Shown here in pieces: positions 19,329 through 55,723 of a stretch of 64,000 bases of DNA. A program made the position numbers and the translations under genes. This stretch comes from Octopus sinensis (taxonomy: Eukaryota), in assembly GCF_006345805.1 (NCBI RefSeq), contig NC_042999.1, positions 164,424,001 to 164,488,000 on the forward strand. Reading direction: 5' to 3'. Position 1 is the first letter of the stretch, and the number at the start of each line of letters is the position of its first letter. Below the pieces are notes generated by a model. It worked only from the letters and a program-made list of their open reading frames with translations. It did not search any database and had not been told where the DNA came from.

Positions 19329-19649
19329 CACACATACATCTTTATATACATATGCACATACATTTATTATATGTGTGTGAGTGGTTGTGCCTATATGTTT
19401 TGTGTATGTGTTTATTTACATACATATACATGTATATATATATATATACATATATACACCACACACACACACACACACACACAGAAACATAGTTAAAAAG
19501 ACATTCTGGTTGACCAACTTTAGCCAAAAATGAGAGTGGAGAGAATTTCAGCCTATGCAGCCATGGTGCCAGATTTAGCAACACAAGCTGATCCAAATAA
19601 AGATTGGCACCTCATTGGCCATGGTCTGGGGGTACAACAGCTAATATCT

Positions 19650-19802
19650 TCAAACAGAGATAACAAATTCAGGATTGATGTAGGAGAATCCAGCAAATTC
19701 AGTCTGGTCTAAATTCATAATGAACAGTTTGTCTGTTGGTGTCAACTTTGGAGCTTCACTGGTGAATTCGCGGTCGAAATTGCTGACATCTTTTTTGCTT
19801 TT
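19650..19802 (-). CDS. PKC: Conventional protein kinase C, distal terminal exon (PKC-betaI-like AGC C-terminal tail)
   Basis: Minus strand: pyrimidine tract and acceptor cacttttcttttaacAG, then in phase 0 KSKKDVSNFDREFTSEAPKLTPTDKLFIMNLDQTEFAGFSYINPEFVISV* (153 nt). It has the NFD motif, turn motif LTPTD and hydrophobic motif FAGFSY, and closely resembles the vertebrate PKC-betaI tail. Confidence 0.95.
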   Translation of the reverse strand, partial: KSKKDVSNFDREFTSEAPKLTPTDKLFIMNLDQTEFAGFSYINPEFVISV

Positions 19803-21057
19803 CTGTTAAAAGAAAAGTGAATAAAATTGAGAATGAAAACAATAATAAGGCTTAAGGTTGGAGCTATATGTATAAAAACAAAAGAGTAGCTGAGCAACAA
19901 TAGGAATTTAAACTTAGAATTTGTAGGAGAGCTGTGATTTATTGATTCAAACCTGTGTATCATTGATATTTATTTTATCAGCTTCACAAGGATAGGTAAA
20001 AAGAAAAAAGTAAAGCTTTAATGTGGCAAGATTTGGGTTGATGATGTGATATAACTAAATGGCATAAAGAGGGATTGAAGACAGACAATCAAAGCTATCA
20101 GCAGTGAGGGAAGAATAGGAAATGCCAACATCTGCAAAGAAGTGTATGGGACTTTATATAGTGAGTTGTTGACGTGAAGAGCCTTGGGTTTTTCTCAACA
20201 ATCAGCAAGCTATAACACTGTGCAAGAAAAATTTTTTTTGTTTTTTTGTCTGTGTTATTTCCCACTTGCTTTTATTTAGAAATTAAAGGAAATGATAACT
20301 ATTCCCTTGAAACATTGCTTTTGTGACACGGACATCAATGCTTTGAAACTGACCTATTTTTCATAACACTTCAGACAGATTCAGTGCTGAATTGCTGAAG
20401 CAGAAATATTGTTATAGCAAATATTCTGCTCAATACCACAGATTTGCTTGTTAGTTGCTTGACCTTAAACTATTTGAGCATGTCCCTTAGTGGCTGACAA
20501 TATGTGCATCTCTGATCATGAACAAGAGTAGTGGAGGAGCATCATAGCCATGTGTTGAGAGGGATTCTTTGGCATTTGAATGAAGGTAAGAAAAGCAAAA
20601 TTTAAAGGAAATAGCCATTTTCCATACTTTCTAGGGCGAAGTAAATAGGAGATAACAATTGTTACCAAGGACAAAAATTGTGTTACACAGTGTAATTCAT
20701 AAATATGGATGGGGAAAACTGGCTGAGTTTAAAGTATTGGACAATTGATTATATGGCATTTTATTAGTTTAGATTGTACAACTAAGCAAGGTATATAACT
20801 CTGCTTAACCTAGTTTAGTTAATTGAATAATAAACCAGGTTCCACTTCTATTTCAAAATTGAGTGGTTAGTGGTAAAAAATGGTATTGCCAAGTTATCAA
20901 CAACAACTATTTCTCACATAGATAGGAATCCTGAGATTTGTAAAACATTCATGGAAAGTTGAGGCAATAATCCTTCTCCCAAGTAGAAGCCAAGAATTCG
21001 TAAGATGAGAACATACATTTTGAGAAGAACTCTGGCTTTGCCAATTTAATAATAATA

Positions 21058-23523
21058 TGGATGGTGCAAAATCCCTTCTCGACCGAAGGTAATGTGGCGG
21101 TGGAACAATGTTGTTGACAGGGCTATTAGGGAAAAGAAACAGGCTTCGAAGGACTGGAAGAACGGTGGTAGCAGGGAATCATATCTGACTGCCGAAAGGG
21201 ATGCGAGGAGACAGGTTTATTTAGCCAGGGGAAAAGCAGATAAGAAAAAAAATTTGCCAATATTCTGCACCGTGCGGACCAAAGACTTGAGGTATTTTGT
21301 ACTGCGAGACAGTGTGTGAGAGAGAATTGTGATGTCATAGGAGAGATGTGTCCGCATGGATGATGGTTCACTTGCATTAAATGAGGCTGCAAAAAGAGAA
21401 GTATGGAGACACCACTATGAAGGGTTGCTAAATAAAGAGAAGGAATGGGAGAAAGAGAGCCTGCCAAATGCTGACCCAACAGAAGGACCAGCTATCCGAA
21501 TTGACAGTGCCTTGGTAGATAAAGCAATTAAGGGTATGAAGACAGGGAACGCTCCCAGCCCATCAAGAATCACTGCAGAGATGCTCAAAATATCTGGCAG
21601 TGTTGGCTATAGCCTAGTCACCCATATAGTCAACCAGGTGATACACAAAGGAGTCATACCCAATGACTGGTGTAGCAGCATAATAGTCAACTGTTACAAA
21701 GGTAAAGGTGATGCCCTAGATACAAATAATTACAGAGGTATCAAGCTATTGGATAAAGTAATGAATGTCTCAGAGAGGGTTGAAGCCCACCTAATTAGGG
21801 AGAGGGTCAGTCTAGATGAGATGCAGTTTGGGTTTGTGCCAGGGAAAAGCACTATTGATGCTATATTTCTAGTAAGACAGCTGCAGTAGAAATACCTAGC
21901 TACAGATAACCCCTCTACCTAGCTTTCGCTGACATAGAGAAAGCCTTTGACAGATAAGCTGATCCCTTATCTGGTGGTCAATGAGGAAACTAGGGATAGA
22001 TGAATGGTTAGTGAGAGCTGTTCAAGCCATGTACAGGGATGCTGTTAGTAAGGTGAGGGTTGGCAACGAGTACAGTGAAGAATTCAGGGTAGAGGTAGGG
22101 GTCCACCAAGGCTCAGTCCTCAGCCCCCTCCTATTTATCACAGTCCTCCAGGCAATAACAGAGGAATTCAAGACAGGATGCCCCTGGGAGCTCCTCTATG
22201 CTGATGACCTTACTCTTATTGCTGAGTCACTATCAGAACTAGAGGAGAAGCTTCAGGTGAGGAAGCAAGGATTAGAATCAACCTAGCTAAAACCAAAGTC
22301 TTAATAAGTAGGAAGGCAGACAAACCACAAATCCCTTCAGGTAGATGGCCCTGCTCGATCTGTAGAAAGGACATAGGTAGAAACTCTATAAGATGTACCC
22401 AGTGTAAGCTATGGACACATAGGAGGTGCAGCAATATCAAAGGAAGGCTAACTGGGAAGATAGTTTTTGTATGTGGCAGATGCTCGGGAGCAATAAACAT
22501 TGGAAATGTGCAGAGAACGACTTCTGTCATATTCTAGGGAGAAAAACTACAAGTAGTTGACAGCTTCCATTACCTAGGTGACCAAGTCAGTAGCAGGAGT
22601 GGATGCTCTGAATGGGTAGCTGCTAGAATAAGAATAACCTGGGCAAAGTTCAGAGAGCTCCTACCTCTGCTGGTGACAAAGGGCCTCTCACTCAGAGCAA
22701 AAGGTAGACTGTATGATGCATGTGTACTAACAGCCATGCTACATGGCAGTGAAACATGGGCCGTGACTGCTGAGGACATGCGTAAGCTTGCAAAGAATGA
22801 AGCCAGTATGCTCCAATGGATGTGTAATGTCAGTGCTCATACTCGACAGAGTGTAAGTACCTTGAGAGAAAAGCTGGACCTAAGAAGCATCAGATGTGGT
22901 GTGCAAGAGAGACGACTGTGCTGGTATGGACATGTGGTGCGAATGGATGAGGACAGGTGTGTGAAAAAGTGTCATACTCTAGCAGTTGAGAGAATCTGTG
23001 GAAGAGGCAGACCTAGGAAGACCTTTGATGAGGTGGTGCAGCACAACCTTCGAACATTGGACCTTACTGAAGCAATGACTAGTGACTGAGACCTTTGGAG
23101 ATATGCTGTGCTTGAGAAGACCTGGCAAGCCAAGTTAGACCATAACCCATGGCCTATGCCAGCAGTGTAACCAGCCTACTTATGCATTGCTAGCGAAGAC
23201 CAGTTGAGGCAAGTGAAATCACAATCAAAATCAAATTCGCTGACATGGCCAATGACAGCATCGCCTAACTGGCACCCGTGACAGTGGAATGTTAAAAGCA
23301 GCATCTGAGCATGATCGTTGCCGGGGCCACTGACTGCCTCCCATGCCGGTAGCACATAAAAAGCACCATTCGAGCATGATCATTACCAGCGTCGCCTTAC
23401 TGGCACATGAAAAACCACATTCAAGCAAGGTCATTGCCAGCGCCGCTTGACTGGCTCCTGTGCAGGTGGCACATAAAAAACACCATTTAAGTGTGGCCAT
23501 CGCCAGTACCACCTGACTGGCCC
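21058..23523 (+). mobile_element. RTE-clade LINE, 5'-truncated, with stops and frameshifts
   Basis: ORF fragments 21356-21889, 21981-22286 and 22673-23089 are homologous to the 505-aa ORF at 54206 (NYRGIKLL, QFGF, HQGSVLSP, YADD). Several ~61-bp 3' repeat units follow. Confidence 0.95.
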
Positions 23524-23524
23524 T

Positions 23525-23718
23525 CAAATTGTTTGGATGCATCGTCACCCATTTTATGCCATGTAGATCGATCTAGGCAATGACTTCCTTAAGATGTCAG
23601 ATTAAGCTGTAGAGGTTTAGTGTTTGCTTCGACTTATCCTCATCCCTAAGGAGAGTTCTTCCTTTGTCACGATATCCCTCCACTTGTTGGCCATACAGAA
23701 GAATTTTCAGAATTCGTC
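23525..23718 (-). pseudogene. RTE-BovB-like LINE C-terminal fragment
   Basis: Minus translation RILKILLYGQQVEGYRDKGRTLLR..DRSTW..FE resembles the K.LLYG.L..G.R..GR....DR..W motif of BovB-type RTEs. Confidence 0.55.
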
Positions 23719-23967
23719 ATCATCAATATAATAATAATAATAAGAATAATAATAACAATAATAATCCTTTCTGTTATAGGCACAAGACTTGAAATTTTGT
23801 GGGGAAAGGGTTAGTTGATTACATTGACCCCTGAGATCAACAGGAAATTATTTTATCATTGTCAAAAAGAAAAAAAAGAAAAACCAATTTGAAATGAGAA
23901 TGAAAAAAATGAGGACTAATGCCACAAAGTGTTTATTCTGATGATTCTGTCAGCTCACTGCTCTCCA

Positions 23968-25032
23968 CTCTAAGGCGATTGTCCATAGGCTCTACATGAA
24001 GAAGGTAAAGGTGGACATGGGCTGATTAGCATACGGGAGTGCATCAACAGTAAAAGAAGAAATATGGCAGAATATTTGGTGAACAACAAACAAAACCTGC
24101 TACAGTATGCTGCTAATGCAGAATAATTTACCAAAAATGGACTTGAGAATGCTAATGAATTCCGATCATGAACAACCAATGAGAAAGAAGAAACCTTATT
24201 CCGCATGGAATTACATGGTCAGTTCCACCGTGAAATTAACAGCTTAAAAGACCAGGAAGCATCATAGAGGTGGCTCAGCAAGGTAGACCTAAAAGAAGAA
24301 GACTGAAAGCCTAATCATTGCTGCCCAGGACCAGGCATTGAATACCAACTCAGTGAGAAGGGATACATATCACACAAGTGCAACGAACCGTTGCAGAATG
24401 TGTAGGAAGAGGGTCGAAAGCGTGACTCACTTTGTTAGTGCTTGTGAGAGTCTTGTGCAGAAAGAATACAAGTGCAGACATGACAAGGTAGCCCAAAACC
24501 TTCACTGGCTACCATGCTGGAGGTATGGATACGAGGTAATAGGTGCTTGGTACCGACATACACTGGAAAAGGTAATGGACGTAAAGGGGAAGGCAAAAAT
24601 CCTCAGGGACTTTGACTTCCAGACAAAGAGCACTGAAGACCAGATACAATAACCTTTAGAAGGGACAAACAAGAGTGAGTGCCTAATCTGGCAGTGCCAG
24701 GAGATCAACATATCATCGTGAAAGAAAGAGAAAAGATTGATAAATATGGAGACCAGAGAATTGAGATCGCTAAGATGAGGCAGCTACAATAGTCAAATGT
24801 AAAGGTTGTCCCTATTGTCATTGGAGCATTGGGTTCAATACTACTCAACCTGAAAAAACATCTGAAAGCTTTAGAAATAGCCTACAATCTGGGTGTATTG
24901 CAAAAATCATCATTACTTGAAAGCGCATACTGTCTGAAGTCCTCGTGGTGACTTGACAGACAGTACAAATCCCCATTAGACACAATATCTTCAATCAACA
25001 ACATCCCGATATTGGATGTTGTGAAACATCTT
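23968..25032 (+). mobile_element. R4/Dong-like non-LTR retrotransposon 3' relic (restriction-like endonuclease class)
   Basis: HRLY..GG.GLISI, TESLIIAAQDQALNTN, CCHC knuckle CRMC..ESVTHFVSAC, RHDKVA, DFDFQT, KIDKY, VVPIVIGALG. The 3' end runs into (TAA)n. Confidence 0.85.
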
Positions 25033-25249
25033 TAATAATAATAATGATAATATCCATTTAAACGTGTGTGTTGTATTACATGAATCAATTTTGCTACTGC
25101 CCCTGCCACTTCCCCTCTCCAAGCTTTCAGTCATACTGCAACATTTCTTATCCTTCACTCGCCCTAGGATGCTGGGTGTGTCTTGGCAAGTGATTTTAAC
25201 AAACAAGCAGATTATTATTATTAATAATAATAATAATTATTATTATTAT

Positions 25250-26723
25250 TTCTACTAAAGGCACAAGGCCTGAAATTTTGGGGTGGGGACTAGTTGATTA
25301 CATTGACCCCAGTGTTTCACTGGTACTTAGTTTATTGACTTCGAAAGGATGTAAGGCAAAGTTGACCTCGGCAGAATTTTAACTCAGAACATAATGATGG
25401 ATGAAACAGTAGCAGGCCAGGCAAAATGCCACTAAGCCTTTTGCCTGGCCTGCTAATGGTTCTGAAAGCTTGCCGTCCTAATAATAATAATAAATCTTTT
25501 CCCTATAGGCACAAGGCCTAAATAATAATAACAATGGTTTAAAAAAAATGGCATAAGATTAGCAATTTCTGGGTAGTGGGAAAGTTTTATTGACCCCCTA
25601 AAGGATGAAAGGCAAAGTCAACCTCAGCAGAATTTGAACTCAGAATGTAAAGAGGGGTGAAATGCTGCTGAGCGCTTTGTCTAGTTTGCTAACAATTCTG
25701 CCAGCTTGCTGAGTTTTTAATAATAATAACAAGAAGAAGAAGAATCCTTCCTACTATAGGAATATAGGGAAAGGGAGGGGGATAATTGCTAAATTGACCC
25801 TGGTACTCAACTGGAACTTATTTCATTGACCCTGATAGGATGAAAGGTGAAGTTGACCTCAGCGGAATTTGAGCTCAGAACATAAAAATGGACAAAATTT
25901 CTGCAAAGCATAAGCATAATAATAATAACGATGATAATAATTCTAATTTTGGCACAAAGCCAGCAATTTTGAGGGGAGGGGTTAACCAATACCTTTGGTC
26001 CTAGTACTTGATTACTATTTATTTCACTGAGCCTGAAAGGCTGAAGGGCAAAGCTGACGTTGGTGAAATTTGAACTTGGAGCTTAATGAGTTGGAAGAAA
26101 TATCACAGACATTTTGTCCATTAATGATTCTGCTGGCTCTCCTAATAATAATAATAAGTCTTTCTACTATAGACACAAGGCCTGAAATTTTTATTATGGT
26201 TTTGGGGTGCTGGTCAATTACATTGACTCTAGTTCTCAACTGGTATGTATCTCTTTGACCCCGAAAGGATGAAAGGCAAAGTTGCCCTCAGTGGAACTTG
26301 AATTCAGAGTGTAAAGATGGACAAGATGCTGCTAAGCATTATGCCTGTTGTGTTATTGTCTCTGCCAGCTTGCCTTATTATTCTTTCATCATTTTTGGGT
26401 TTGGGGGTCGATGAAATAAGGACCATTTGAGGTCATTGTAATCAGGCCCTCCCACCAAACTTTTAGACCTTGTGCCTATAGTAAGTAGGATTATTATTAT
26501 CATTATTAAGGTGGTGAGATGGCACAATTGTTAGCACGCCAGGCAAAATGCTTAGCAGCATTTCATGTGTCTTTATTTTCTGAGTTCAAATTCCACTAAG
26601 GTTGGCTTTGCCTTTTATCCTTTCGGGATTGATTAATTAAGTACCAGTGAAATACTGGGGGTTGTTGTAATCCACTAGTCCCCCTTCCCTAAAATTTCAA
26701 GTCTAGTGCCTTAAGAAGAAAGG

Positions 26724-26726
<3 letters not shown>
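25250..26726. mobile_element. Cluster of about 7 family-A SINE copies separated by (TAA)/(ATT) repeats
   Basis: Minus copies at about 25250-25480, 25535-25712, 25745-25910, 25940-26140 and 26158-26375; plus copies at about 26380-26490 and 26510-26726. Confidence 0.85.
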
Positions 26727-26764
<38 letters not shown>

Positions 26765-27164
26765 AAGAATTAAAAAAAAGCTTGTTTTGTTACATGAAAG
26801 TAAGAATTTTAATGAATTGAAGCTAGCTATTAGTGAAAAATGCAGAAGAACAATGGAAAATATTACAAATAAAATTGCAGTCTTAGAATATCAGCCAGTG
26901 GATGGTATAGTCTGAAATAAATGGGGTATAGGTAGATCAACTGAAAATATCAATAAAACATTGATTGAAGATGAACTATTGCTTCCAATTCATAGATATA
27001 TCAGGCAAAAAAAAAAAAGAAAGAAAAAGAAAGAAGAAATGTATACTGAAGACAATAGTAAACAGAATTGGTGGTGGAAGAGATCAGAAGCAACATGGAA
27101 TAACAACAAACAAGCCTTGTAATCAGATGAGATGTTTCTGATACTGTTAATAGCAGCTGCCATT

Positions 27165-27685
27165 TCATATAATGACTGTGTTCATTTTGCTTTGATATAT
27201 ATATATGCATTACATTTTTAACATAAGTTATCTATGAAGAGATTTTTCACTCAGACAAAATCCACAGCAAAATGCCTTTCTATCGGGCATATACATTTAG
27301 TGTGATACACAGATGCCTATTTAATCTTAATTCTATTTCAGTTGCATTGACTGAATATTTTTACTGCCCAGGAAGCATTCTGCAACATCAGTGAATATGT
27401 TATTCACTGTTTCTTATATATCAAAGCACAAATTTCATTCAAAGAAGTAACAAACGGGTACAAGCCTCATGAAGGGTGAAATGTATCTAATGTTTATATG
27501 AGTCACTGCTGTGGCAATGTTCATTTTGCTTCACTAGACACTGAGTTTTTAGCATGACATGTCTATGAAGATGTTTTCTCTTAAACAAAAAAGCACAGTA
27601 GTATGCCTTTCTATGGTGTATATACATTTATTATAATACACAGATGTCTATTTTAACTTAATACTGTTTCAGTTGCTTCCACGGA
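27165..27685. repeat. Diverged direct duplication (~190-bp units about 330 bp apart)
   Basis: tgttcattttgctt..tctatgaaga..tgcctttctat..atacattta..atacacagatg.ctattt..tttcagttgc is present twice. Confidence 0.7.
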
Positions 27686-30199
27686 AAACAATTCATGATC
27701 ACACTTGGTAGAGAACTAAGAGATTACTACTGTTTATTTCATCCTTACTGTTTTAATGTCAATGTTTCTAAGCAGGGATGGGTCGGATGGCTCTGCTGTA
27801 CAACAAATCACAAGTTTTATTCTTATATCATCTTGTATGTAAGCCATGTCATTCTGTGATCTGAACTCACCACTTTCTCCTATGTCTTCTTCTACTTGGA
27901 ATTCACTGTATATCCCTCTGTCAACATACCGTTGCACTTTTGTTCTAAATCAACCTCCATTCACAGCCAATGTCCATGTCAGTGCAATTATCTCTTTGCA
28001 CATACATTGACTGATGCTATTGTAACCAACCACTCGTAAGTTCACTAAAATATAATCTATGAAAACATCAATGGAAGCTAAAATGTAGAACATTATAAAA
28101 CACCTTTCAATCAAATCAGTGAAGCTTTCAGCTTATGAATTCTAGAGAATTTTGAAGAAAAAGTGGTTTGATGAAAAAAAAAAAAAAAAATTCAGAAATA
28201 TGATTTATTCAAAGAGGGAAGGAAACAAAGAAATGGAAAAGAAGACAATTCCGACAGTTGACTCTTTGACTGCTTCTATAAAGAATGGAGGTGAATAGCC
28301 AACACAAGGGATGCAGTGAGCAGCAAGATTGACAGCATTGCTGCGACAGGAAGTTATAGACATGGATCTCAGTTACATGAAATCAGTCAGTTAACAGAAT
28401 TTGTGGGTTTTTTTTTCTCATAAATAAAACTGCAGCTGCTTTTGGTGGTCATTGCAACAGTAGAGTTTATGTCTTAACCATATAAACCGAATTATGATTG
28501 GAAATAGAAACTAAGAAGGCTGATGCTGTCATTGGTATTAATAATTCAACTTACATTACAAGGATGGTAATAATTTACTATATAGTGCACTGGTATTACC
28601 AATTAAAAATACATAGGTATCAACAATTAGATATACATTACAACATACATTACAGGCATGTTAATGTTTTCATAATTGCTACACATACCCATAACATAGA
28701 CAACACATTTGTACAGTGGACGTGACTGCAACACATAATACACACATAAACAATACACAATATATATAACAATAACAAACACTATACATAATTATTGGTA
28801 CCCCTTGAATTGCGGAAGCATTGTAATCCTGAAAATCTTGCCTTAACATGGAATTTAACAATTGATTTCTATGTTACAAGGAAGTCACTGTAGATCGGAC
28901 TCACTGGGAAACCATGTTTCCTTTTACAGAATTCCATGCTATAGCAACATTTTCATGACCATAATAATTCTATAGCATGGAGGTGATGCATGCATAATAC
29001 ATGCTGCACATAAGTAAGACCCCTGGAAATATACATGAAAATATTACAGTATCATTAAATATCACAAAAATAACTAAATGCAGAAGACTATTGCCATTGA
29101 TACACACACACATACATATATGTCTGCGTGTGTATTGGACAATTAACTGTTACTTACATAAACAACTCTACCTATCACTTAGAATACAAAATTGTGTTAT
29201 TTTTAATGGCAACAATCCTCCTAGTAAATACCAAGTTTGCTATTCTCTCTAATTGGTGTTGTACATAAAAATAACACCCACTACACATAATTATAAGATA
29301 CATGCTAGATATACTTATACTAAACATCATAACCACATACATACAAATATAAATACATTATGCATAATCATAATATACACTATACAAATATAACACATAC
29401 TACGAACAAATACAATACACTTAAGTATAACACTTGTGACAGACTTTATCTTAATAAGAAAGTCGATTGGAATGATTGATTGAGATAATTTTTTTTTAGG
29501 AAAATAAAATAACTACAAAATGAAATTACTGATTATCTTTTTACATTAATGTGAATAGTAAACTAAATGAATTACACAATCTGTCTGTGTGTCAACAAGT
29601 ACAACAAAGAAATTACTTTCAGTTATCAGACAGACATTAGTGAGAGGTGAGAAGTGAGAAGATACAAATGGTAGTCACAAAGGTAGTCACGCTAAAGAGG
29701 AGAAAAAATTAGAACATTTATTAATTGTTTAAAAAGCATTTCTGGAATAGGTGTTAGGATTTTCATTAACAGTTTGTTTAAACAAGTCCTGGTTCATCAT
29801 TTAGGTGAGTGAATCCTATTCAATCCCATGTCTGTCAGAAGTGCATCAACCATCTCTTATACATCTTTATTGTCATCTTTGCTTCCATCTTAACAACTAC
29901 TCTACTGTTCTTATTTCACTACACATACTACATTACATTCTTTAATTAACATCACTCTTATACTTCAGAAACCTACTCAACCCACTGTTTCCCTTGACAA
30001 CTAAATAATCTTGATAGCTTCTCAACCATCAAACACAACATCCCTGTCCGTTATAATTCTCCTTTTCACTGAGGAAGTCCACAACTACATACTTCTGGTA
30101 AATATAAATTTCTTTGATTATCTGTCTACATACTGTTTGACATTTTAAAATATACTAACTACTGGGTCCTCCTGTATGTAAAATATCCCTTATAATATG

Positions 30200-30555
30200 A
30201 TCACCATGCTATGGTCGTTCTACCAGGGTCACTATATACTCTGTGATAGTTCTATAATAGTCACTACACTATACATATGTGTTAGATCTACTATGGTCTT
30301 CACACAATAGGGTAGTTTTATCATAGACTTCACACTATGACAATTCTATCATTGTCCTCATTAATTCATGGTAATTCTCTCATAATCTCCACACCATGAT
30401 ACACTATGGCATTTTTATCTTAGTCATCAAACAATATGACAGTTCAGTGACAGTCACCACACTATATGGCAGTTGTATTATAGTCAATAAGTTATATGGT
30501 AGTTCTATCTTTGGCTCTCCACACTATATGGTAGTTACCTCATGTTCTCTACATA
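30200..30555. repeat. Degenerate ~30-bp minisatellite
   Basis: Recurring consensus approximately cacactatatggtagttctatcatagtc. Confidence 0.7.
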
Positions 30556-31170
30556 GAAACAACTGATAAACTTCTGGGTTACGTCTTACATAAGGTTTCT
30601 GTCACAGAACACTTATGGCAAAAATTTCATTAATTATGATTAATTTTGATATTATCACTGCTTATGATTGAGTAGCTTAAATGTCTGTCTAATTAGGTCT
30701 AATGAACTAATCACTTAGAATGAGAGCCTTCTTTCATTCACAATCAACTGATTCACCCTTCTTCATGAAATGAGGTGTATTTAATTAGATAAACGCTTCT
30801 ACACTATTTCTATTTATTTAATATTTTCTGAACTAAGTGAGTCAAGTAGATACTGGGCGATCACTTGAAAGGTCAATGTATCAAATTCAGACCACAGTTG
30901 TGGATGGTAAATTCTATGTTTCACCATTGATGTGAAATTCTGTTTCAGCATGGTAAAACTGTTGAGTGTTTCATTGTTGCGTAGTATTCAGGTCAATTCT
31001 ACTTATGGCTAATGCAAGAAAATATGTTGGTTCTCATTGAGCTTCTCTTTATATGATCAAATGAGCCACGACATTGAGCTGAGATTTTCACACTCTGATA
31101 GCAAGACCAATTAGTATCCAGTTGTTAATATTGAACTGAAACTATTTCAATATATGACATTTCTTTTATA

Positions 31171-31390
31171 AGGCAGAGAGAGGCTGGCAGAAATGTCAGC
31201 ATGTCAGGCGAAATGCTTAGCAATATTTCGTCTGTCTTTACGTTCTGAGTTCAAATCCTGCCGAGGTTGACTTTGCCTTTCATCCTTTCGAGGTTGATAA
31301 ATTAAGTACCAGCTGTGTACTGAGGTCGATCTAATTGACTGGGCCCCCTCCCCCCAAATTTCAGGCCTTGTGCCTAGAGTAGAAGAGATT
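31171..31390 (+). mobile_element. tRNA-derived SINE, family A, full length
   Basis: GGCTGGCAGAA head, GAGTTCAAATCC B-box, Nin-like core and GTGCCTAGAGTAGAAG tail. Confidence 0.85.
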
Positions 31391-34300
31391 AGAGGTAAAT
31401 AAGGGATAAAAAATAAAAAGAAAGTATCAGTATAGAGTTCTGCCTAGGTGGTCATACATAGATCTGTAAATGAATGTCAAGTGATAAAAGAAAAGAGTTT
31501 GTCAGCTTGTTTAGTTGTTATGGAGCCCTAGGTCAGAGGATAGAACAATCCATTTAGTACAAAGTAACTTATGTATGATGTTAAAATAGAATTATTGCAT
31601 AAGTACATGGCTTCAGAGCACATGCACAAATAGAGGAAACTAACTAGAAACAGATATTAAATATTTCCTAACTGTTTCCTATAACACATAGTGCTTCTAA
31701 CGGAAGATGGTCACTGTCAATTGGTTATCAAAATATCAAGCCATGTCCACAGAAAAGTCATTTATTAATTACCAAGTCTCCCTAAACACGATAATTTTTC
31801 TTCTGAAGCATGGCTTTTTTTGTCGTTTTATTGTATTAGCTACGTTGTCCATATGACCTGAACAGTTCACCCTAAACTTATATCACCTCACCTCTTCAAA
31901 ACAAAATTTTTCTAGGACATGTGTTAACCTGTGTTTTTAATAGCTACCTTACCCTATTCTCAGTATATTACAAATGCTAAGGGCATTCTGAAATGGTTTT
32001 GCTTCCAGTTCTTATGTCTTGAAACAGGGTAAAATTCTTTAGAAAGTACACAGTGAGCATTAAACATTGCATTTCAAATCTTTGGATTAGCCCTGTGAAC
32101 TACTGAAACCCTTACGACTATCACGACTGTCTTTCTTCACTTATTGATGCTCTCAGTCGTCTCTTTTCCTCTTTTTCATTGAGTTGTACTGCACCTAACA
32201 GTGTATACAATAAGCTCATGAATATCAACATTAGTATTATAGAAAAAGTACTTCCTCAGCATACAGAAGAACACCAGTATCTATTTATACTTAAGTGAAG
32301 TGACTCACTCAGTGTCAAGTGTGCATATATACATAGCATTAGCTGGATATTCCATTGTAACATTACAGCCATACGTTTGCTTTAATGATGTCTATCTACC
32401 CCCTCTGTTCATATGCCTGTACATATATAAATCTTTATATCCAACTGAACCTGGATGTCGTGTTAGAATGCCAAATACTGCATTATTAGCTTTGAGAGAC
32501 CCTCTCATATAGGTGCATGGTATATAAAAGCACTGACATAAATCATAGCAGATGGGCATCCCTAATGAATGATTCTCATCTGCTACAATCTAGGTATGTG
32601 TGCTTTTATGCTCTAAGCACCTACATGAGATTCTTTCAAGGCTAATAACACATTATTTGGTCTTCAAACATGACATCCACATTAAGTTGGATATAAAGAT
32701 TGCATTTTGGTACTAATACTTCTATCACTAATAATTAATATATCAAAACCAACTGAAACTAAATCACTATCATTCATGAGAGAGCTATTGAGAATTTCTT
32801 CTAAAGATGAGTTGCAAGATGAGAAAAGATTAAGTGGTTGAAATTGGTGAAGACACTCATGTTTGGTGTAATGCATTCAGGTTGAGAGAATTAAAGGTGG
32901 GTGGATGTAAATAGTTTTGTGGGGAAAAACTGAAAAAAGTGAGGAAATTTGGAAACAAGGTGAGTAGAATGGGAAGTATAAGAAGTAGTGAAACGAGAGA
33001 GAAATAAAAGAGAAAAAAAGAAACCCAGAAATTAAAATGAAGAAATCAGAAAGAAAATAAAAGCAACAATTTGAATTTCAGAAAGAAATGCAAATAAAGT
33101 GTAAAATAGGGTGAAAAAAATGGATAAATCAAAATACATGGTTTAAATAAAAGAAAAAGAAAGAAAAAAAAACAAAGAGTAAGAACATGCAAGAATAAAA
33201 TGTTTAATAAACAAAAATTGGTGGAGAGGATGAGTTAGAAGCTGCCATTACTGTGACATAACCATAAAGTGTAAAGAAGCCTCTAAACATAATGTTGCTG
33301 TATCCTATTTAAACATTGCCACAAAAATAACTATAAAATGTAGCAAAGCTTGCAAAGATAGATTTGTATTTCAGAGTCAGCTAGAATGTATAGCAGAGTT
33401 GTAAATTTGTAGTGTGTTGACATTGAAATATTTTAGCATATTATGTAATTTTTCTCTTTCTACATACCCAGAGATCATAACTGATACATCATGACTAATA
33501 TATATATAGAGAGAGAGGAAAGTGTGCAACTGTATATGATTTATCAGGAAAATCTATTACTGGAGACAAGGTACAACACCATAGTAACTCATGGAATGAA
33601 GACAGGTAAAAAAAAAAAAATGGAATTGACTTTTAAGAGGCTGGTTTGCAGGGTGGGGGGGGAACTGAAGGTCAGCACTGTAAACGTATTAAACAATAGT
33701 GTGTTATAAAGTTCTGTTTCTACTTACAGAAGAAAACACCCAAACACAGTACTTATTTATAGTAAGTTAGCATTATGAGAAGGTGTGCCATCTAGTGGCT
33801 AGGGTGTGGATTCATGATCATGAAGTTGTAGTTTTGGTTTTCTCACAAGTGGTATGTTGTGTTTTTTGAGCAAAATACTTCTTTTCCTGTTCCTCTAGTC
33901 AACATAGCTGAGACTAAATCTTTCGGTAGATGGCATTTCAATTTAGGAGAGAGTCAGCCTGAATCTTAAACCTAAGACTAAGATGGCATTAGCCATTGAG
34001 GGTTAATGCTATCCATCAACACAGTGTCAACAACACTCTATGAAATATACACTCTGTTGCATCCAGACTATGTCGATTAGGTAAACAACATGAGTTTCTT
34101 TGTGCAATTAGAAAAAGATTGGTCTGAACTAGTCTCAGCAATTTTTACTGGTTTAAAGAGGTTGGTGACACATTTTACTGATTCATCAGGGAGAAAATAG
34201 CATTTATAGTATAAAACTTAAATTGGTCTGCCGTACGTACACAGACTTAAACATAGGTATGTAAACTTATTGAATGTACGCTTCTTAAACACAGGTAAGT

Positions 34301-34806
34301 AACCTTATTCAAACTTTAACCACACACTACTGTCTCAGTACTTTAGCCATTAAACAACTTTGTCAGGAAATGTACTAATGTGTAAATGAGCAAAATTGAT
34401 GCTTCTAACTCACTGCATTTTTTCAAAGTAAGCTGTGAGTCACTTTGAACGTGAGTAGATACTCTAAATGAGAAGGCAGTAACTAGTTGAAACTGCACAA
34501 GCAATAACTATTTGAAACTATACAAGCTATTCACAGTTTTATATAGAAATAGCAGCCCTGTGTTTTGACCACAGGGTTTATCTACATAGTGACACAGTCA
34601 CAAACATATTTTAACTAACATGAAGTTCACTTATGCCTAAACATGGCTGAATTTCTTCTGACCTGATGCTCTAATAATGTAACTCAGTCAATGTTGCTGA
34701 CTGTTTTAGCTAAAGCTATCAGTTTAAACCTGCTCAGAATTACCTCTCTTTGATATTTTTCATTGATGATGGCTGAAGAGTTACAAACACTGCATCTGGA
34801 AATCTG

Positions 34807-36573
34807 ACACTGGCAACGACCACACTCAAATGTTGTTTTTCACTTGCCACCAGCACAGGTGCCAGTTAGGCGATGCTGGCAACGATCATGCTTGACTGGT
34901 GCTTTTTACGTGCCACCAGCACGGGAGCCAATCAGCGACCCTGGCATGCTTGGATGGTGCTTTTAACATTCCACTGGCACCAATCAGGTGGTACTGTCAT
35001 TGGCCATGTCAGTGATTTTGATTTCACTTCCCTCAACAGGTCTTTGCAAACAAAGCTTATTGTCCAATGAATGAAGGGTACTCATAAGTGGGCTGGTTAT
35101 ATACCACTGGCATAGGCCATGGGTTAGGGTCTCACTTAGTTTGCTGGGTCTTCTCAAGCACAGTATACCTCCAAAGGTCTCAGTCACTAGTCATTGCCTC
35201 GGTGAGGCCCAATGTTTGAAGATCGTGCTTCCCCACCTCATCCCGGGTCTTCCTCTTCCACAGGTTCCCTCAACTGCTAGGGTGTGACACTTTTTCACAC
35301 AGCTATCTTCATCCATTCTTACCACATGACCATACCAGTGCAGTCATCTCTCTTCCACACCAAATCTGATGCTTCTTAGGTCCAGCTTTTCTCTCAAGGC
35401 ACTTACACTCTGTTGTGTATGCACACTGACATTACACATCCAGCGGAGTATACTGGCTTCATTCCTCATGAGCTTACACATGTCCTCAGCAGCCATGACC
35501 CATGTTTCACTGCCATGTAGCATGGCTGTTCATACACATGCGTCATACAATCTGCCTTTTACTCTGAGAGGCCCTTTGTCACCAGCAGAGGTAGGAGCTC
35601 TCTGAACTTTGCCCAGGCTATTCTTATTCTAGCAGCTACAGAGCATCCACTCCTGCTACTGACTTGGTCACCTAGATAATGGAAGCTATCAACTACTTGT
35701 AGTTTTTCTCCCTGGAATGAGACGGAAGCTGTTCTCTGCACATTTTCAGTTTTATTGCTCCTGAGCATTTGCCACATACAAAAGCTATCTTCACAGTTAG
35801 CCTTCCTTTGGTATTGCTGTACCTTTTATGTGTCCATAGCTTACACTGGGTATATCTTATGGAGTTTCTACCTACGCCTTTTCTACAGATTGAGCATAGA
35901 GGAGCTCCCAGGGGCATCCTGTCTTGAATTCCTCTGTTATTGCCTGGAGGATTATGATGAATAAGAGGGGGCTGAGCACTGATCCTTGGTGGACCCCTAA
36001 CCCTACCCGAAATTCTTCCCTGTACTCATTGCCAACCCTCACCTTACTGACAGCATCCCTGTACATGGCTTGCACAGCTCTCTCTAGTTTCCTCATTGGC
36101 CACCAGATAAGGGATCGGCTTATCTGTCAAAGTCTTTCTCCATGTCAACGAAAGCCAGGTAGAGGGACTTATCTTTGGCTAGGTATTTCTCCTGCAGCTA
36201 TCTTGCCAGAAATATAGCATCAGTGGTACTTTTCCCTGGCATGAACCCAAACTGCATCTGGCTAACTCTCACCCTAATTAGTTGGGCTATAACCCTCTCC
36301 ATGACTTCCATTACCTGATCCAACAACTTAATACCTCTGTAATTGTCACCTTTACCTTTGTAGCAGTTGACTATTATGCTGCTACACCAGTCATTGGGTA
36401 TAACTTCTTCATGTATCACCTGGTTGACTATACGGGTGACTAAGCTATAGCCGACACTGCCAGATATTTTGAGCATCTCTGCGGTGATTCCTGATTGGCA
36501 GCGAGCATTTGCTGTCTTCATACCCTTAATTGTTTTATCTACCAAGGTACTGTTAATTCGGATAGCTGGTCCC
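34807..36573 (-). mobile_element. RTE-clade LINE, truncated and degraded
   Basis: ORF fragments 36198-36545, 35872-36096, 35693-35917 and 35559-35777 match the 505-aa ORF. 3' repeat units lie at 34807-35010. Confidence 0.95.
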
Positions 36574-38926
36574 TATATATATATATATGAAAGATGTTGG
36601 TGTGTATGTATGAGTATGGATATCAATACAAGAGTTGAGAACATTCATTGCTAAATAACAAATAGGTGAATGAATTAATTACTGCAATCTGATTAAGCAT
36701 TTAATTAGTTCCTACTTGTTAATGTATTTTCATTCTGTTGTTGTATTTGAGAAGAAAATCCACAATCCATGTCTTACAGATACCTTTTCAAGAATATAAA
36801 GGGTTCAGTTTCAATCAAATGTTGGATTTAATGATTTTGTCTGTTAACTTTGTTCATTATGGTAATGGTTGTGGTTCTGTTCTTGCTTTGATTGCTTTTG
36901 ATATTGTGGTTATTGTTGTTATTCCTACTGTTATTGGGTAGCTTTGATCAGTTCTATTCAAGAAGACCTTTGAAAGCAATTGGTCCAATACTTAGCAACG
37001 TCTTAAAGGTCTGGACATAGTCTAGTTAACATTATCTGGTTCTGCAAGTGGAAAGGTTTATATTTGCATGGAAAAACTGGGTTCATATGATTGATATGCA
37101 ATTAAAGATTTCAGTGAGTGGCAGTCACACAACTGTGAGGACTGGCAGAGATATACTAGGGAAAAATCAAAATTCACAATTGAGGGAAAGCTATATAAAG
37201 CAACAGGCCAACATATTTAAGCACCCAGCCTATATGAGGCTTCAGAACTATTTTGCATCAATTCATTCCATGTTAACATGAGTAGAAATGGTGTCTATAG
37301 ACTTAAATGTTTGTGTATTGTTGGGAGAAAATAATTTTATGGCTAACCTGGAAAGAAAGAAGCAGTATAAGGTCTAAATGGATAATGGTGAGACGCACTC
37401 ACATGTGAGAAAGATACTCATGTGGTGGTGGTTGTCTCTATATGATAAATTTCATGTGGAATAGACTGTTAAATATATCAGATGCATAAACAAAAATATG
37501 AATTCTGGATCAAGTTGCGAGGCAGACAAGAACTGGACCAGACTAATCTGGTATTAACCTTTTGCTAACAATTAGCTAGGCGAACCAATTGAGAGACTTT
37601 TGTTTGTAGCTAAACCATATTAAATCTGATACTTATTGTTGACAGTTAGACAGACTGAGTCAACAAAGAATAAATATTCCAGCAGAACAAAATGAAATGT
37701 CACTGATGGATCTGAACTAATAATTCATGAACAGAAAAATCAAATAATTTATCTCTTCAGCCTTCTTGTTCTGATTGATAACAAATAATTAGAAAACGAA
37801 GATTAAATAAAGTAACATCACCTTACTATATAATGGATATAAATAATTAATAAGAGAAAAGATAAAATATAATTGCTCCAGAAATCAATATGTGAAAGAG
37901 TATGTGTTAACTACAATGCATTAAGTACAGTGTGTGAAGCCTGGAGTTAAATACCTTGTCAGCCACAATATGGAAACTATTAAATTGATTATAGTGTGTG
38001 AACTAAGGTGATTTAAGAAACAACACCAATGAAATTTGCAACATTAAACTCAGCTTCTTTATCTCCTGCATCCCTACAGTATTGACATATCCCTCTTTCA
38101 ACAAGAGTGTCATCTGTCAGCTGGTGTATTCTGAAAGAGCTGAGGTGTTTTCAGTGAATTGTAAACAATTGTTGCCAGATGTCAGTCAACCACGACCACA
38201 GAAAGGAAATGGCACCCACCACCATCATTATCATATAATCATGAGTACTGATGAGTTATTTGCCATTAAGATTTTCCATCAGACGTGTGAGCAGGAGATG
38301 ATACTATGGGTCTCTATCTCCTCCTTTATCATCAAAATCTGCAGTAGCATTACCATAACACCCTCAACCAATGGACAAGTTATAATGAAATAGATAATAT
38401 TTTAACTTGTCTTCATGATTTTAATAAGGGTGCACATTACGTTAAAATTCATTATTTTAATAAAATGGAGGAATAGGAATATTTAAGAAAAGAAATGAAA
38501 CTGATTTACAAATTGTATTGAACAAAATATGATTCCTTGATTGGACAGAATAAGAGACTTTTGTTGTTACATTTTAGCTTGGCGAGAAAAGCCAATATCC
38601 AAAACCTTTATAGGCATTTCTGGAATAGTTAGGATAAGGCTGATGTTAATGGAAGCCTACTGATAAATAATGAAGCGAACATAGATTGTTAATAGGTCTT
38701 GTTAATTTACTGCATATTGAGTTAACTGAATTTTTGTCTAATCAAATGATGACACTTTAGAAAGCATTCAAACCCTAGCAGTCTTAATTATGAGTTCGTA
38801 GGCATTTATGATGAGGCTGGTTGTTAAGTGGAACCAGTCTTTACAAAATATGGTCATCACAGTTACAAGCAGCATTCTTGTGGAAGGGAAGGAAATGAAA
38901 AAAAGCAAAAGTATACATACTACCGC

Positions 38927-39088
38927 TCAAGAGTCTGATTGTATTTGACTGAAAAAGGGATTGACAAAAGAGAAGTTCCTGAATGCACTATCATCAATAT
39001 TCATGATGATTAGACTGTCTGTTGGGGTCATTTTGACATCCTTAGAGGTGAACATCTTGTCAAAGTTTTCAGCTTTCCTCGAGTCATG
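38927..39088 (-). CDS. PKC: Conventional protein kinase C, proximal alternative terminal exon (AENFD-type AGC C-terminal tail)
   Basis: Minus strand: acceptor ttattttctgcccttacAG, then in phase 0 HDSRKAENFDKMFTSKDVKMTPTDSLIIMNIDDSAFRNFSFVNPFFSQIQSDS* (162 nt). NFD, turn motif MTPTD and hydrophobic motif FRNFSF sit at the spacing expected for a PKC tail. Confidence 0.9.
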   Translation of the reverse strand, partial: HDSRKAENFDKMFTSKDVKMTPTDSLIIMNIDDSAFRNFSFVNPFFSQIQSDS

Positions 39089-39311
39089 CTGTAAGGGCAG
39101 AAAATAACAAATTAGTACAGTAGGTGTCTCAGGTAGAACCTATTTTGGTGAGTACCTCTCTGAGGTGAGACAGTATTACACTTGCAAGTCACCAGTGTAG
39201 GCTGATAACATACTGCTTAGGCTTTACATCACCTACTTCTCCTCTCAACAGCTGAAACCACTCACTTGAACTGATCTCTAGAAAACAAATGTCTGTCTGA
39301 CAACAACACCA

Positions 39312-46279: not shown

Positions 46280-46648
46280 AAATTCTCTTAGTTCTGTTAG
46301 GCGTTTGTTACTGATATTTGCATCTTCTACAATGGTACAAATTCTTCTGGCTAGGCAGTATGGGATGTTACGTTTTGTATGTGGTGGATGGCACGACTTA
46401 AAATTTAGGTATCGATGTGTGTTTATAGTATATATCTGTGGTGATGGTGGTGTCTTTTTTAATTACCATTATATCTAGGAATGGTAATTTGGTACTACTC
46501 ATCTCCTTTGTAAATTGGAGAGATGGGTGTAGGTTGTTCAGGAGGATATTGAACTCTTCCAGAGTATTTAGAGACTCTGTCCAGATTATGAAGCAGTCGT
46601 CTAGGTATCTCTTCCATGCCTTTTCAATATACTTTCTAAATATATATA

Positions 46649-46691
<43 letters not shown>

Positions 46692-53330: not shown

Positions 53331-54205
53331 CAATGAGCGACTCCGTTTTTCTACTTTGTTTGCTCCATAAATCCTTAGATTAAACTCAATAGGGGTATAA
53401 TTTAAACTCAAGCAGTCTATTATCAATCCCATTCTTCCTATCTTGCAGATGGATACAACTGTAGATTATGTTTACAATAGCATACCCATGTCGTCAAAAA
53501 TGCCAATTGTTCTTTTAATGATAGAAAAGGGTGGGTTAAAACAATCAAAGAAAGAGTTAATAAATCTGATTCCAACTTGTCATAGCCTTAACTTGTGCTG
53601 ATGCTGTAGGATTTTAATTTAGCTTGAATTCTGTGCTTCAACGATATTTAATAATTTATTGTACATATAGTACATCTGTTTTTATATATATATACACATA
53701 CATACACTTTTCCATACTTGCATGGGTTTTTATTGAGTCAGATTTTTCTACAGCTGGATGCTCTTCCTGTCACCACCACTAACCTCTTTAAACACACAAC
53801 ACATCTGCTTATATATATATCATCATCATCATCATCGTTTAATGTCCGTTTTCCGCGCTAGCACAGGTTGGACGGTTCGACCGGGGTCTGGGGAGCCAGG
53901 GGCTGCCCCAGGCTCCATATATATATATATATATAAATTTACATGCTAGTATTTATAGCTTTATGTGATGTGCTTTAAGATCCACTATTCTCTAGAAAAA
54001 GTTTATAAAATGCTTACGATGTCAACAACACAATTCTCATTGGCATGAAATAAAGTTTCTAATATTGATAATGAAATTTAAAGGATCGCTTTGAATTTGT
54101 GTCTCATGAGCAGCCTTTGACATTTTGTATCTCAAAGAGGTTTTTGACCCAAAATTTACATACTATTATTTATAGCTTAGCCTAGTCACCTGTATAGTTA
54201 ATCAG

Positions 54206-55723
54206 GTGATACATGAAGGAGTCATACCCAATGACTGGTGTAGCAGCATAATAGTCAACTGCTACAAAGGTAAAGGTGATGCCCTAGATACAAATAATTA
54301 CAGAGGTATCAAGCTGTTGGATCAGGTGATGAAGGTTACAGAGAGGGTCATAAGCCAACTAATTAGAGAGAGAGTTAGTTTAGATGAGATGCAGTTTGGT
54401 TTCGTGCCAGGGAAAAGTACCACTGATGCTATATTCCTGGTAAGGCAGCTGCAGGAGAAATACCTAGCCAAAGATAAGCCCCTGTACCTGGCTTTTGTTG
54501 ACATGGAGAAAGCCTTCGACAGGGTCCCCCGATCCCTCATATGGTGGTCAATGAGGAAACTAGGAATAGATGAATGGTTAGTGAGAGCTGTGCAAGCCAT
54601 GTACAGGGACACTGCTAGTAAGGTGAGGGTTGGAAATGAGTACAATGAAGAATTCCGGGTAGAGGTAGGGGTCCACCAAGGCTCAGTCCTCAGCCCCCTC
54701 CTATTTATCATAGTCCTCCAGGCAATAACGGAGGAATTCAAGACAGGATGCCCCTGGGAGCTCCTCTATGCTGATGACCTTGCTCTAATTGCTGAGTCAT
54801 TATCAGAACTGGAGAAGAAGTTTCAGGTGTGGAAGCATGGTTTAGAATCGAAGGGCCTTAGAGTCAACCTAGCTAAAACCAAAGTCCTAATAAGTAGGAA
54901 GGTAGACAAATCACAAACGCCTTCAGGTAGATGGCCCTGCTCGATCTGTAGAAAAGGTGTAGGTAGAAACTCTATAAGATGCACCAAGTGTAAGCTATGG
55001 ACACATAAGAGGTGCAGCAATGTCATAGGAAGGCTAACTAGGAAGATGGTTTTTGTATGTGGCAGATGCTCGGGAGCATTAACCTCTGAAAATCTGCAGA
55101 AAACAACTTCCGTCACTTTCCAGGGGGAAAAACTAGAAGAAGTTGATAGCTTCCGTTATCTTTGTGACCAAGTCAGTAGTGGGGGTGGGTGTGCTGAAAG
55201 TGTAACGGCTAGAGTAAGAATAGCCTGGGCAAAGTTTAGGGAGCTCTTACCTCTGTTGGTGACTAAAGGCCTCTCGCTCAGAGTAAAAGGCAGACTGTAT
55301 GATGCATGTGTACGAACAGCCATGCTACATGGCAGTGAAACATGGGCCGTGACTGCTGAGGACATGCGTAAGCTCGCGAGAAACGAAGCCAGTATGCTCC
55401 GTTGGATGTGTAATGTCAGTGTTCATAGTCGACAGAGTGTAAGTACCTTGAGAGAAAAGTTGGACCTAAGAGGAATCAGATGTTGTGTGCAAGAGAGACG
55501 ATTGCGCTGGTATGGTCATGTGGTGAGAATGGATGAAGATAGGTGTGTGAAAAAGTGCCACACCCTGGCAGTTGAGGGGACCTGTGGAAGAGGTAGACCC
55601 AGGAAAACCTGGATCGAGGTGGTAAAGCACGACCTTCGAACTCTAGGTCTCACCAAGGAAATGACCAGAGACCGAGACCTATGGAAGTATGCTGTGCGTG
55701 AGAAGACCCGGCAAGACCAGTGA
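54206..55723 (+). CDS. RTE reverse transcriptase ORF (N-terminally truncated, no APE domain) with internal PHD finger
   Basis: NYRGIKLL, QFGFVPGKSTTDAIF, FVDMEKAFD, GVHQGSVLSP, YADD (54767-54778), C4HC3 insert, RRLRWYGHV, RGRPRKTW. The GTG start is an artefact of truncation. Confidence 0.9.
   Translation: MIHEGVIPNDWCSSIIVNCYKGKGDALDTNNYRGIKLLDQVMKVTERVISQLIRERVSLDEMQFGFVPGKSTTDAIFLVRQLQEKYLAKDKPLYLAFVDMEKAFDRVPRSLIWWSMRKLGIDEWLVRAVQAMYRDTASKVRVGNEYNEEFRVEVGVHQGSVLSPLLFIIVLQAITEEFKTGCPWELLYADDLALIAESLSELEKKFQVWKHGLESKGLRVNLAKTKVLISRKVDKSQTPSGRWPCSICRKGVGRNSIRCTKCKLWTHKRCSNVIGRLTRKMVFVCGRCSGALTSENLQKTTSVTFQGEKLEEVDSFRYLCDQVSSGGGCAESVTARVRIAWAKFRELLPLLVTKGLSLRVKGRLYDACVRTAMLHGSETWAVTAEDMRKLARNEASMLRWMCNVSVHSRQSVSTLREKLDLRGIRCCVQERRLRWYGHVVRMDEDRCVKKCHTLAVEGTCGRGRPRKTWIEVVKHDLRTLGLTKEMTRDRDLWKYAVREKTRQDQ

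Follow-up and report, generated by a model that had tools for sequence, protein, structure and literature searches.

Can one conventional protein kinase C (PKC) gene of an octopus end in two alternative tails, as vertebrate PRKCB does, and by what splicing route would the choice be made? The question is raised by a stretch of 64,000 nucleotides (nt) of the Octopus sinensis genome (NC_042999.1, positions 164,424,001 to 164,488,000; hereafter the window), in which two short exons 19 kb apart each encode a PKC C-terminus. A preliminary description, made from the letters alone, took the source to be a probable mollusc and the exons to be alternative last exons of one gene; the animal is indeed an octopus. 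The upstream exon is here called A and the downstream exon B. Our reading, to which we give a probability of roughly 0.85, is that a single conventional PKC gene has a betaII/betaI-type tail switch working through A as a stop-bearing cassette, and that the switch likely stems from the same bilaterian duplication as that of human PRKCB. The exon pair itself is not new: it is annotated in RefSeq and was dated to Bilateria in 2021. The present locus contributes three modest points: a cassette junction between A and B observed in a protostome, a broad sampling of protostomes, and a conserved contrast at the residue numbered 648 in betaI.

One gene body and two tail exons

Both exons lie on the minus strand and begin in phase 0 (Table 1). 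Exon A is preceded by ...ttattttctgcccttacag, a pyrimidine tract ending in CAG, and encodes HDSRKAENFDKMFTSKDVKMTPTDSLIIMNIDDSAFRNFSFVNPFFSQIQSDS followed by a stop. Exon B is preceded by ...tcacttttcttttaacag and encodes KSKKDVSNFDREFTSEAPKLTPTDKLFIMNLDQTEFAGFSYINPEFVISV, again followed by a stop. The NFD motif, the turn-motif Thr and the hydrophobic-motif Ser/Thr are present in both tails. Pfam Pkinase_C scores are 38.0 bits for A and 58.6 bits for B; both are above the cut-off of 20.9, so neither exon is due to chance.

Tandem C1 domains, a C2 domain, a kinase domain and a PKC C-terminal domain are found in one gene (Pfam on the isoforms P0003 and P0022, with the exons mapped to the genome); judged by these domains, the gene is a conventional PKC. 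For mapping of the upstream exons, 50 kb of neighbouring DNA was added to the window. The last exon common to both isoforms ends CCTAAAATA and is followed by a GTGAGT donor, at extended coordinate 70,650. It is 6.6 kb outside the window, and its distance to the downstream tail exons is 31.6 kb for A and 50.8 kb for B. The exons found with P0022 lie in order on one strand (minus) of G000:C3, from 164,829,157 down to 164,443,653, a span of about 385 kb. At 89-100% identity this is the only set that matches P0022 in the animal's own genome. Other matches to the tails in the assembly (L003-L005, 46-50% identity) are different genes. In the window, tblastn with the full-length isoforms finds no PKC exons other than A and B, and in the window plus the 50 kb no PKC-like sequence turns up in the interval from the common exon to A or in that from A to B. 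Candidate hidden kinase exons between A and B were weak tblastn hits (E at least 0.06), in the wrong orientation or in repeats, and were rejected.

RefSeq isoforms named 'calcium-dependent protein kinase C' carry both tails at 100% identity, in O. sinensis (XP_029634365.1 and XP_029634366.1) and in O. bimaculoides (X1 and X2). The first 608 residues are identical in the isoform pair P0003/P0022, and the first 605 in P0002/P0020; the tails alone differ. These are automatic models, and the protein records are silent on whether A is terminal or a cassette. Elsewhere in the protein, at residue 523 in the kinase C-lobe (exon at about 71,660, extended), P0003/P0022 are three residues longer than P0001/P0021, presumably through use of an alternative acceptor.

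Two other arrangements have to be weighed: tandem paralogous PKC genes that each end in one of the exons, or an exon A that is a dead duplicate. The 19-kb gap is of a kind that paralogues could explain, and the junctions to the common exon lie outside the stretch to which reads were aligned. Against paralogues, there is one gene body, no kinase exon lies between the tails, and the RefSeq isoforms share that body; the same facts run counter to splicing of the two exons to different upstream kinase genes, which the preliminary description had named as the outcome that would undo its reading. A dead exon is at odds with the transcription and splicing of A, and with its identity to the corresponding exons of Argonauta (98%) and a chiton (76%). 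Both arrangements are exceedingly improbable.

The preliminary description had thus placed the exons, their phase and their pyrimidine tracts with AG correctly. Its further statements, that each exon encodes a complete tail and a stop, that kinase exons are absent between them, and that one conventional PKC gene makes two isoforms, agree with the translations and Pfam matches, the tblastn search and the shared gene body respectively. Two details need correction. The motif of the common exon is PPYKP, not PPFKP, and the tails, described as easily missed by annotation, are both already in RefSeq for the two octopus species.

Splicing of exon A onto exon B

In mouse PKCbeta, the last exon is left untranslated when the betaII V5 exon is included, and betaI is made when that V5 exon is excluded (PMC3537621, legend of Fig. 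2B). The octopus gene resembles mammalian PRKCB in this respect, with a stop-bearing first exon spliced onto the second as untranslated region (UTR). Four runs were aligned to positions 19,500-39,250 at 90% likeness; the common exon is outside this stretch. Record 9 of run X7 (2,397 nt, depth 48.4) joins the two exons: its letters 41-343 match 19,500-19,802 and its letters 344-511 match 38,921-39,088, with 0 differences. Exon A is therefore spliced at GTA/GTATGT, 6 nt past its stop, over a 19,118-nt GT..AG intron onto B, and so behaves as a stop-bearing cassette. The remaining 1,886 letters of the record are outside the stretch; they fit the 1,824-nt upstream coding region in length only, the letters themselves not having been seen.

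X21 and X23 are raw RNA runs with the label of a related octopus, each read to about 6%. Worked out from bins, exon A (168 nt) has a depth of about 33 in X21 and 12 in X23, and the 303 aligned bases of B have about 27 and 10. Just inside the intron (bin 37,952-38,610) the depth falls to 0.03, which means that exon A has little 3' UTR of its own in these runs. In X21 and X23 nearly all transcripts seem to contain A and to run on into B, and the A-included form appears to be dominant in the three informative octopus runs. The fourth run, X3, has an even depth of 7-11 over the intron; it is probably DNA or pre-mRNA and was set aside as uninformative. An upstream cassette with its own stop and a last exon that becomes UTR is thus found in octopus in one contig and in the depth pattern of two raw runs. 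The junctions from the common exon to A and to B are database models, not reads; the B-only isoform is based on such models and on B-tail transcripts of other molluscs.

Several observations weigh against a cassette, in octopus or in general. The A-to-B junction is seen in one contig of one run, and the RNA status of that run is a guess in its record. The junction is not among the listed joint and loose-end rows, which were repeat-derived only. Another X7 contig (38,705-38,928, depth 2.5) crosses the donor from A into the intron, so unspliced or A-terminal RNA exists. A donor at the octopus position after A's stop is present in 0/17 of the A-type loci examined (17 of 21 loci, four fish alpha/gamma-like loci being left out). 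In the annelid-like transcript L026, A is followed by about 585 nt of UTR in which B does not appear. In a compact-genome animal, the spliced transcript L015 (2,820-3,256) passes from A's stop to B over about 430 bases that were not spliced out, and so represents a third route to the A isoform. Animals in general need not share the cassette mode.

The rival to be considered here is a pair of true alternative last exons, with the A-type mRNA mainly ending at its own intronic poly(A) site and the A-to-B splice minor or tissue-limited. ATTAAA hexamers at 38,461 and 38,425, the contig that crosses the donor and the UTR of L026 would all suit it, and PMC8373072, in the text available, generally classes such 3' events as alternative poly(A) use. 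However, in X7 the depth of the spliced A-B contig exceeds that of the read-through contig about 20-fold. The depth of X21 and X23 at 37,952-38,610 also speaks against this rival, and the 168-nt exon suffices to explain their depth in the A bin. Alternative last exons are unlikely. The simple last-exon choice of the preliminary description does not fit the sole junction seen, which joins A to B at a donor just past A's stop.

Past the stop position, the cephalopod-like record P0005 has VVCI in common with the window, which is no more than a weak hint. Isoforms of a chiton, an abalone, a sea spider and a spider (P0008/P0134, P0182, P0162, P0279) have 4-14 extra residues between PPxKPKI and the tail exon. 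These peptides suggest micro-exons or shifted acceptors at the same junction. No micro-exons like those of Haliotis or chitons were found between the common exon and octopus A, where one chance-looking CPC match was rejected.

Age and distribution of the exon pair

Like vertebrate PRKCB, the octopus gene has two homologous tail exons after a PPxKP exon, in phase 0, with the betaII type first. The octopus B tail, like that of vertebrate betaI, is 50 residues long, and is 73-78% identical to vertebrate betaI tails. Unlike PRKCB betaII, octopus A has neither the CG start nor TPPDQ, and it is 41-47% identical to betaII. In octopus the donor lies 6 nt past the stop and the intron is 19.1 kb long. 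Whereas vertebrates have alpha, beta and gamma genes, octopus showed one close-matching conventional PKC gene.

PRKCB is among the tandem exon substitutions that have been traced to Bilateria, with exon-specific residues mapped to a helix (PMC8373072, 2021). The crown-of-thorns starfish is given there as an example, and is the only species named for the PRKCB event in the text available. PMC9741552, as far as its accessible text goes, repeats the Bilateria date, classes the Drosophila Pkc53E event as affecting a different region, and lists pkc-2 among genes with such events without stating the location.

Both tails are found on one body in 16 genera by cluster look-ups: Octopus, Liolophura, Mytilus, Haliotis, Patella, Babylonia, Biomphalaria, Lineus, Lingula, Owenia, Nymphon, Centruroides, Parasteatoda, Araneus, Glandiceps and Ptychodera. 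These represent cephalopods, chitons, bivalves, gastropods, nemerteans, brachiopods, annelids, a sea spider, arachnids and hemichordates; the pair is also present in vertebrates. Fused gene models of 10 genera read A then B (Paralvinella, Dimorphilus, Nucella, Owenia, Nymphon, Hypsibius, Anneissia, Acipenser, Ophiophagus and Chiloscyllium), and the order B then A was not seen among the fused predictions. Both exons are present in 11 of 21 metagenome loci, with A first in all 11; the 21 were found with an A profile, and the 11, some of them near-duplicates, stand for about two lineages. One is annelid-like and the other of a compact, AT-rich genome type, at a guess rotifers. Only the B tail is seen in clusters of Hermetia, spider mites, schistosomes and Aplysia, and only the A tail in sea urchins, which is not proof of loss.

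Two side cases arose in this survey. In Dinothrombium (P0217/P0105) and Bradybaena (P0202/P0039) the A and B tails are on differently numbered gene models; these may be paralogues of which each retained a single tail, much as A seems to have been retained by vertebrate alpha and gamma. The record P0011, filed under the plant Castilleja foliolosa, is a PKC of arthropod type with a B tail and probably reflects contamination of the plant assembly.

Trees were made from 49 columns, with one row per species or locus hand-picked from about 300 proteins. All A-type tails, betaII, alpha-like and gamma included, fall on one branch, first 37/37 (support 100/97) and then 48/48 (100/96). Mean identity is 73% among B tails and about 50% among A tails. 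B tails thus evolve slowly, and relative to novel-PKC outgroups they do not form a clade; B seems to resemble the ancestral type, and A seems to be derived. The sample leaves out the conventional PKC tails of nematode, amphioxus, tunicate and cnidarian. Two 3' exons were reportedly described for C. elegans pkc-2 in 1997.

Among solved structures, exon B matches a 672-residue PKC beta chain with E 5e-20, and alpha and betaII chains far lower; the tail of the matched chain fits the betaI numbering used in the accessible part of PMC13385876. Exon A matches betaI (41.8 bits), alpha (40.9 bits) and betaII (36.2 bits) about equally. The assignment of A to the betaII type is made from the tree, its position and diagnostic residues, not from raw identity. 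On this basis the earlier placing of a betaII-type exon upstream and a betaI-type exon downstream holds.

Two residues are diagnostic. The residue before NFD is E in 48/48 A tails and 0/42 B tails, and E-N/H-FD is present in all 15 genera reached through B searches. The equivalent of betaI F648 (NFD+19) is F in 0/48 A tails, which have V, I, L or M instead, and in 35/42 B tails. Hypsibius B, with a 2-residue insertion, was left out of both tallies. At this position the octopus tails have I (A) and F (B), and human PRKCB likewise has F in one tail and a small aliphatic residue in the other (648/647).

It should be noted that not all of this favours a common origin. The B tails do not form a clade. 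Approximately unbiased (AU) tests on the 49 columns do not reject groupings forced on vertebrates (p=0.072), molluscs (p=0.050) or deuterostomes (p=0.18). Octopus A is 41-47% identical to betaII and 47-49% to betaI. As many of the A tails came from searches with a profile built on A, the count of ENFD is partly circular; at the 648 position, 7/42 B tails lack F.

Convergence would mean that vertebrates, molluscs and other phyla each duplicated a slow, betaI-like tail on their own and that the upstream copies drifted alike. Besides the AU results, it can appeal to the low identity among A tails relative to B tails, and to the recurrent origins that the authors of PMC8373072 report for other genes, such as ACOX1. 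Yet the constrained trees are worse by 22.7 (vertebrates), 24.0 (molluscs) and 16.1 (deuterostomes) log-likelihood units, the A branch has support of 100/96, and intron position, order and diagnostic residues are alike in every lineage seen. The Bilateria date given for PRKCB in PMC8373072 also stands against it. Convergence seems to us quite unlikely, and it is very probable, as far as sequence comparison can tell, that the octopus A/B exons and the human PRKCB pair come from a single ancestral bilaterian duplication. The preliminary description had left 'ancestrally conserved or convergent' as alternatives; the former is favoured, with separate origins left unrejected by the AU tests.

Vertebrate PKC alpha and gamma are taken to be single-tail genes. 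Their tails group on one branch with octopus A and betaII, which suggests that these paralogues kept A. In Aplysia, PKC Apl I (NP_001191415.1) has a tail of B type, 84% identical to octopus exon B, and is presumed to be the orthologue of the octopus gene. The Apl I cluster holds the B form only (2/2 members); other heterobranchs (Biomphalaria, Lymnaea, Elysia) have an A tail. An alternative Apl I tail is not mentioned in the accessible text of the Aplysia PKC/PKM papers 10.1101/620633, PMC13282866 and PMC5159657. A literature search that covered few subscription papers found no paper on a tail switch in octopus or Aplysia, on the octopus cassette splice or on conservation of the cassette, nor on a conserved contrast of F and V/I at betaI residue 648.

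Predicted consequences and neighbouring DNA

The isoforms differ by a swap of the last 50-53 residues. With A included, translation would end at A's own stop, with B spliced on as untranslated sequence, and give a betaII-type enzyme; with A skipped, the annotated betaI-type enzyme would be made. The premature-stop rule for nonsense-mediated decay is 50-55 nt; because A's stop is 6 nt before the last junction, the A-included mRNA would be expected to escape decay. Inclusion of A is probably regulated by tissue or signal. In mammals, inclusion is under the control of insulin, Akt and SRp40 (SRSF5); the available text of PMC5793162 confirms insulin/IGF-PI3K-SRSF5 control.

The tails may tune autoinhibition as in human betaI and betaII. 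According to the accessible part of PMC13385876, the stronger lipid response of betaI is attributed to F648, which shifts helix alphaB and displaces or frees C1b, and V647 of betaII lets C1b dock. F648A reduced the effect there; F648V was intermediate or near wild type, which weighs against this reading. As octopus B has F and A has I at this position, the B isoform is predicted by analogy to be more easily activated by lipid, or opened at the membrane. At residue level, the locus ties the octopus tails to the structural explanation given in 2026 for how betaI and betaII differ. If the cassette junction and this link hold, invertebrates with one conventional PKC gene would gain two activation thresholds by splicing. 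Work on plasticity in Aplysia or cephalopods that uses the B-tail clone alone, or antibodies to that C-terminus, would then miss an isoform.

A wider proposal is made tentatively, with the odds somewhat against it. The pair and its working logic, namely a cassette that turns the betaI exon into UTR and a Phe versus Val/Ile toggle at 648 that sets kinase opening, may predate the protostome-deuterostome split. An A-tail Apl I would then be a second classical PKC of molluscan neurons, and the vertebrate paralogues alpha and gamma would have become fixed in the A state.

Table 1. Features of the PKC tail region (window coordinates).
Feature	Position	Strand	Evidence or remark
Exon A, coding part: 53-residue betaII/alpha/gamma-type V5 tail and TGA (38,929-38,927)	38,927-39,088	minus	AENFD, turn-motif Thr, I at betaI-F648 equivalent, FSF; identical to tails of P0001-P0003
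Exon A as spliced, 168 nt, ending 6 nt past the stop	38,921-39,088	minus	X7 record 9, letters 344-511, 0 differences
Exon A 3' splice site, pyrimidine tract and CAG	39,089-39,110	minus	Sequence; contig edge at 39,088
5' splice site GTA/GTATGT joining A to B	38,915-38,920	minus	X7 contig
Intron A to B, 19,118 nt, GT..AG; retrotransposon and other repeat fragments, without kinase exons	19,803-38,920	minus	
Exon B 3' splice site, pyrimidine tract and CAG	19,803-19,830	minus	Junction in X7 contig
Exon B, coding part: 50-residue betaI-type V5 tail and TGA (19,652-19,650); untranslated if A is included	19,650-19,802	minus	VSNFD, TPTDKLF with F648 equivalent, FAGFSY, end ISV
3' UTR common to both isoforms, running on below 19,500	19,500-19,649	minus	X7 record 9 covers 19,500-19,802 and goes on for another 40 letters; X21 depth 23-33 at 19,551-19,598
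Candidate AATAAA poly(A) signals, 19,416-19,411 and 19,368-19,363	19,363-19,416	minus	Motif match only
Part of the 31.6-kb intron from the last common exon (…VQPPYKPKI, G000:C3 about 164,494,650-164,494,790, beyond the window) to A	39,089-64,000	minus	

Two decayed copies of one retrotransposon, 85-87% alike and inverted, are inside the A-B intron at 21,056-23,100 (plus strand) and 35,080-36,570 (minus strand). Such copies could pair in the pre-mRNA; there is no evidence of an effect. A 515-residue open frame at 54,176-55,720 (plus strand, antisense to the PKC gene) has a reverse transcriptase domain and a weak PHD finger and is of the same family as the intronic copies. Other retroelement-like protein fragments with a YLDD-type motif and no Pfam match are found at 46,401-46,679 (minus strand) and 24,293-24,649 (plus strand), which we take to resemble Penelope-like and R2/R4-like elements.

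Outside the window, the locus L003 (G000:C9512:76,177-79,323) encodes a divergent conventional PKC (30-50% identity) with 30% GC and apparent GT..AG introns of 27-33 nt. Many kinase matches with internal stops on unplaced contigs look like it. Dicyemids have tiny introns, and the L003-like sequences suggest foreign DNA in the assembly, possibly from a dicyemid parasite.

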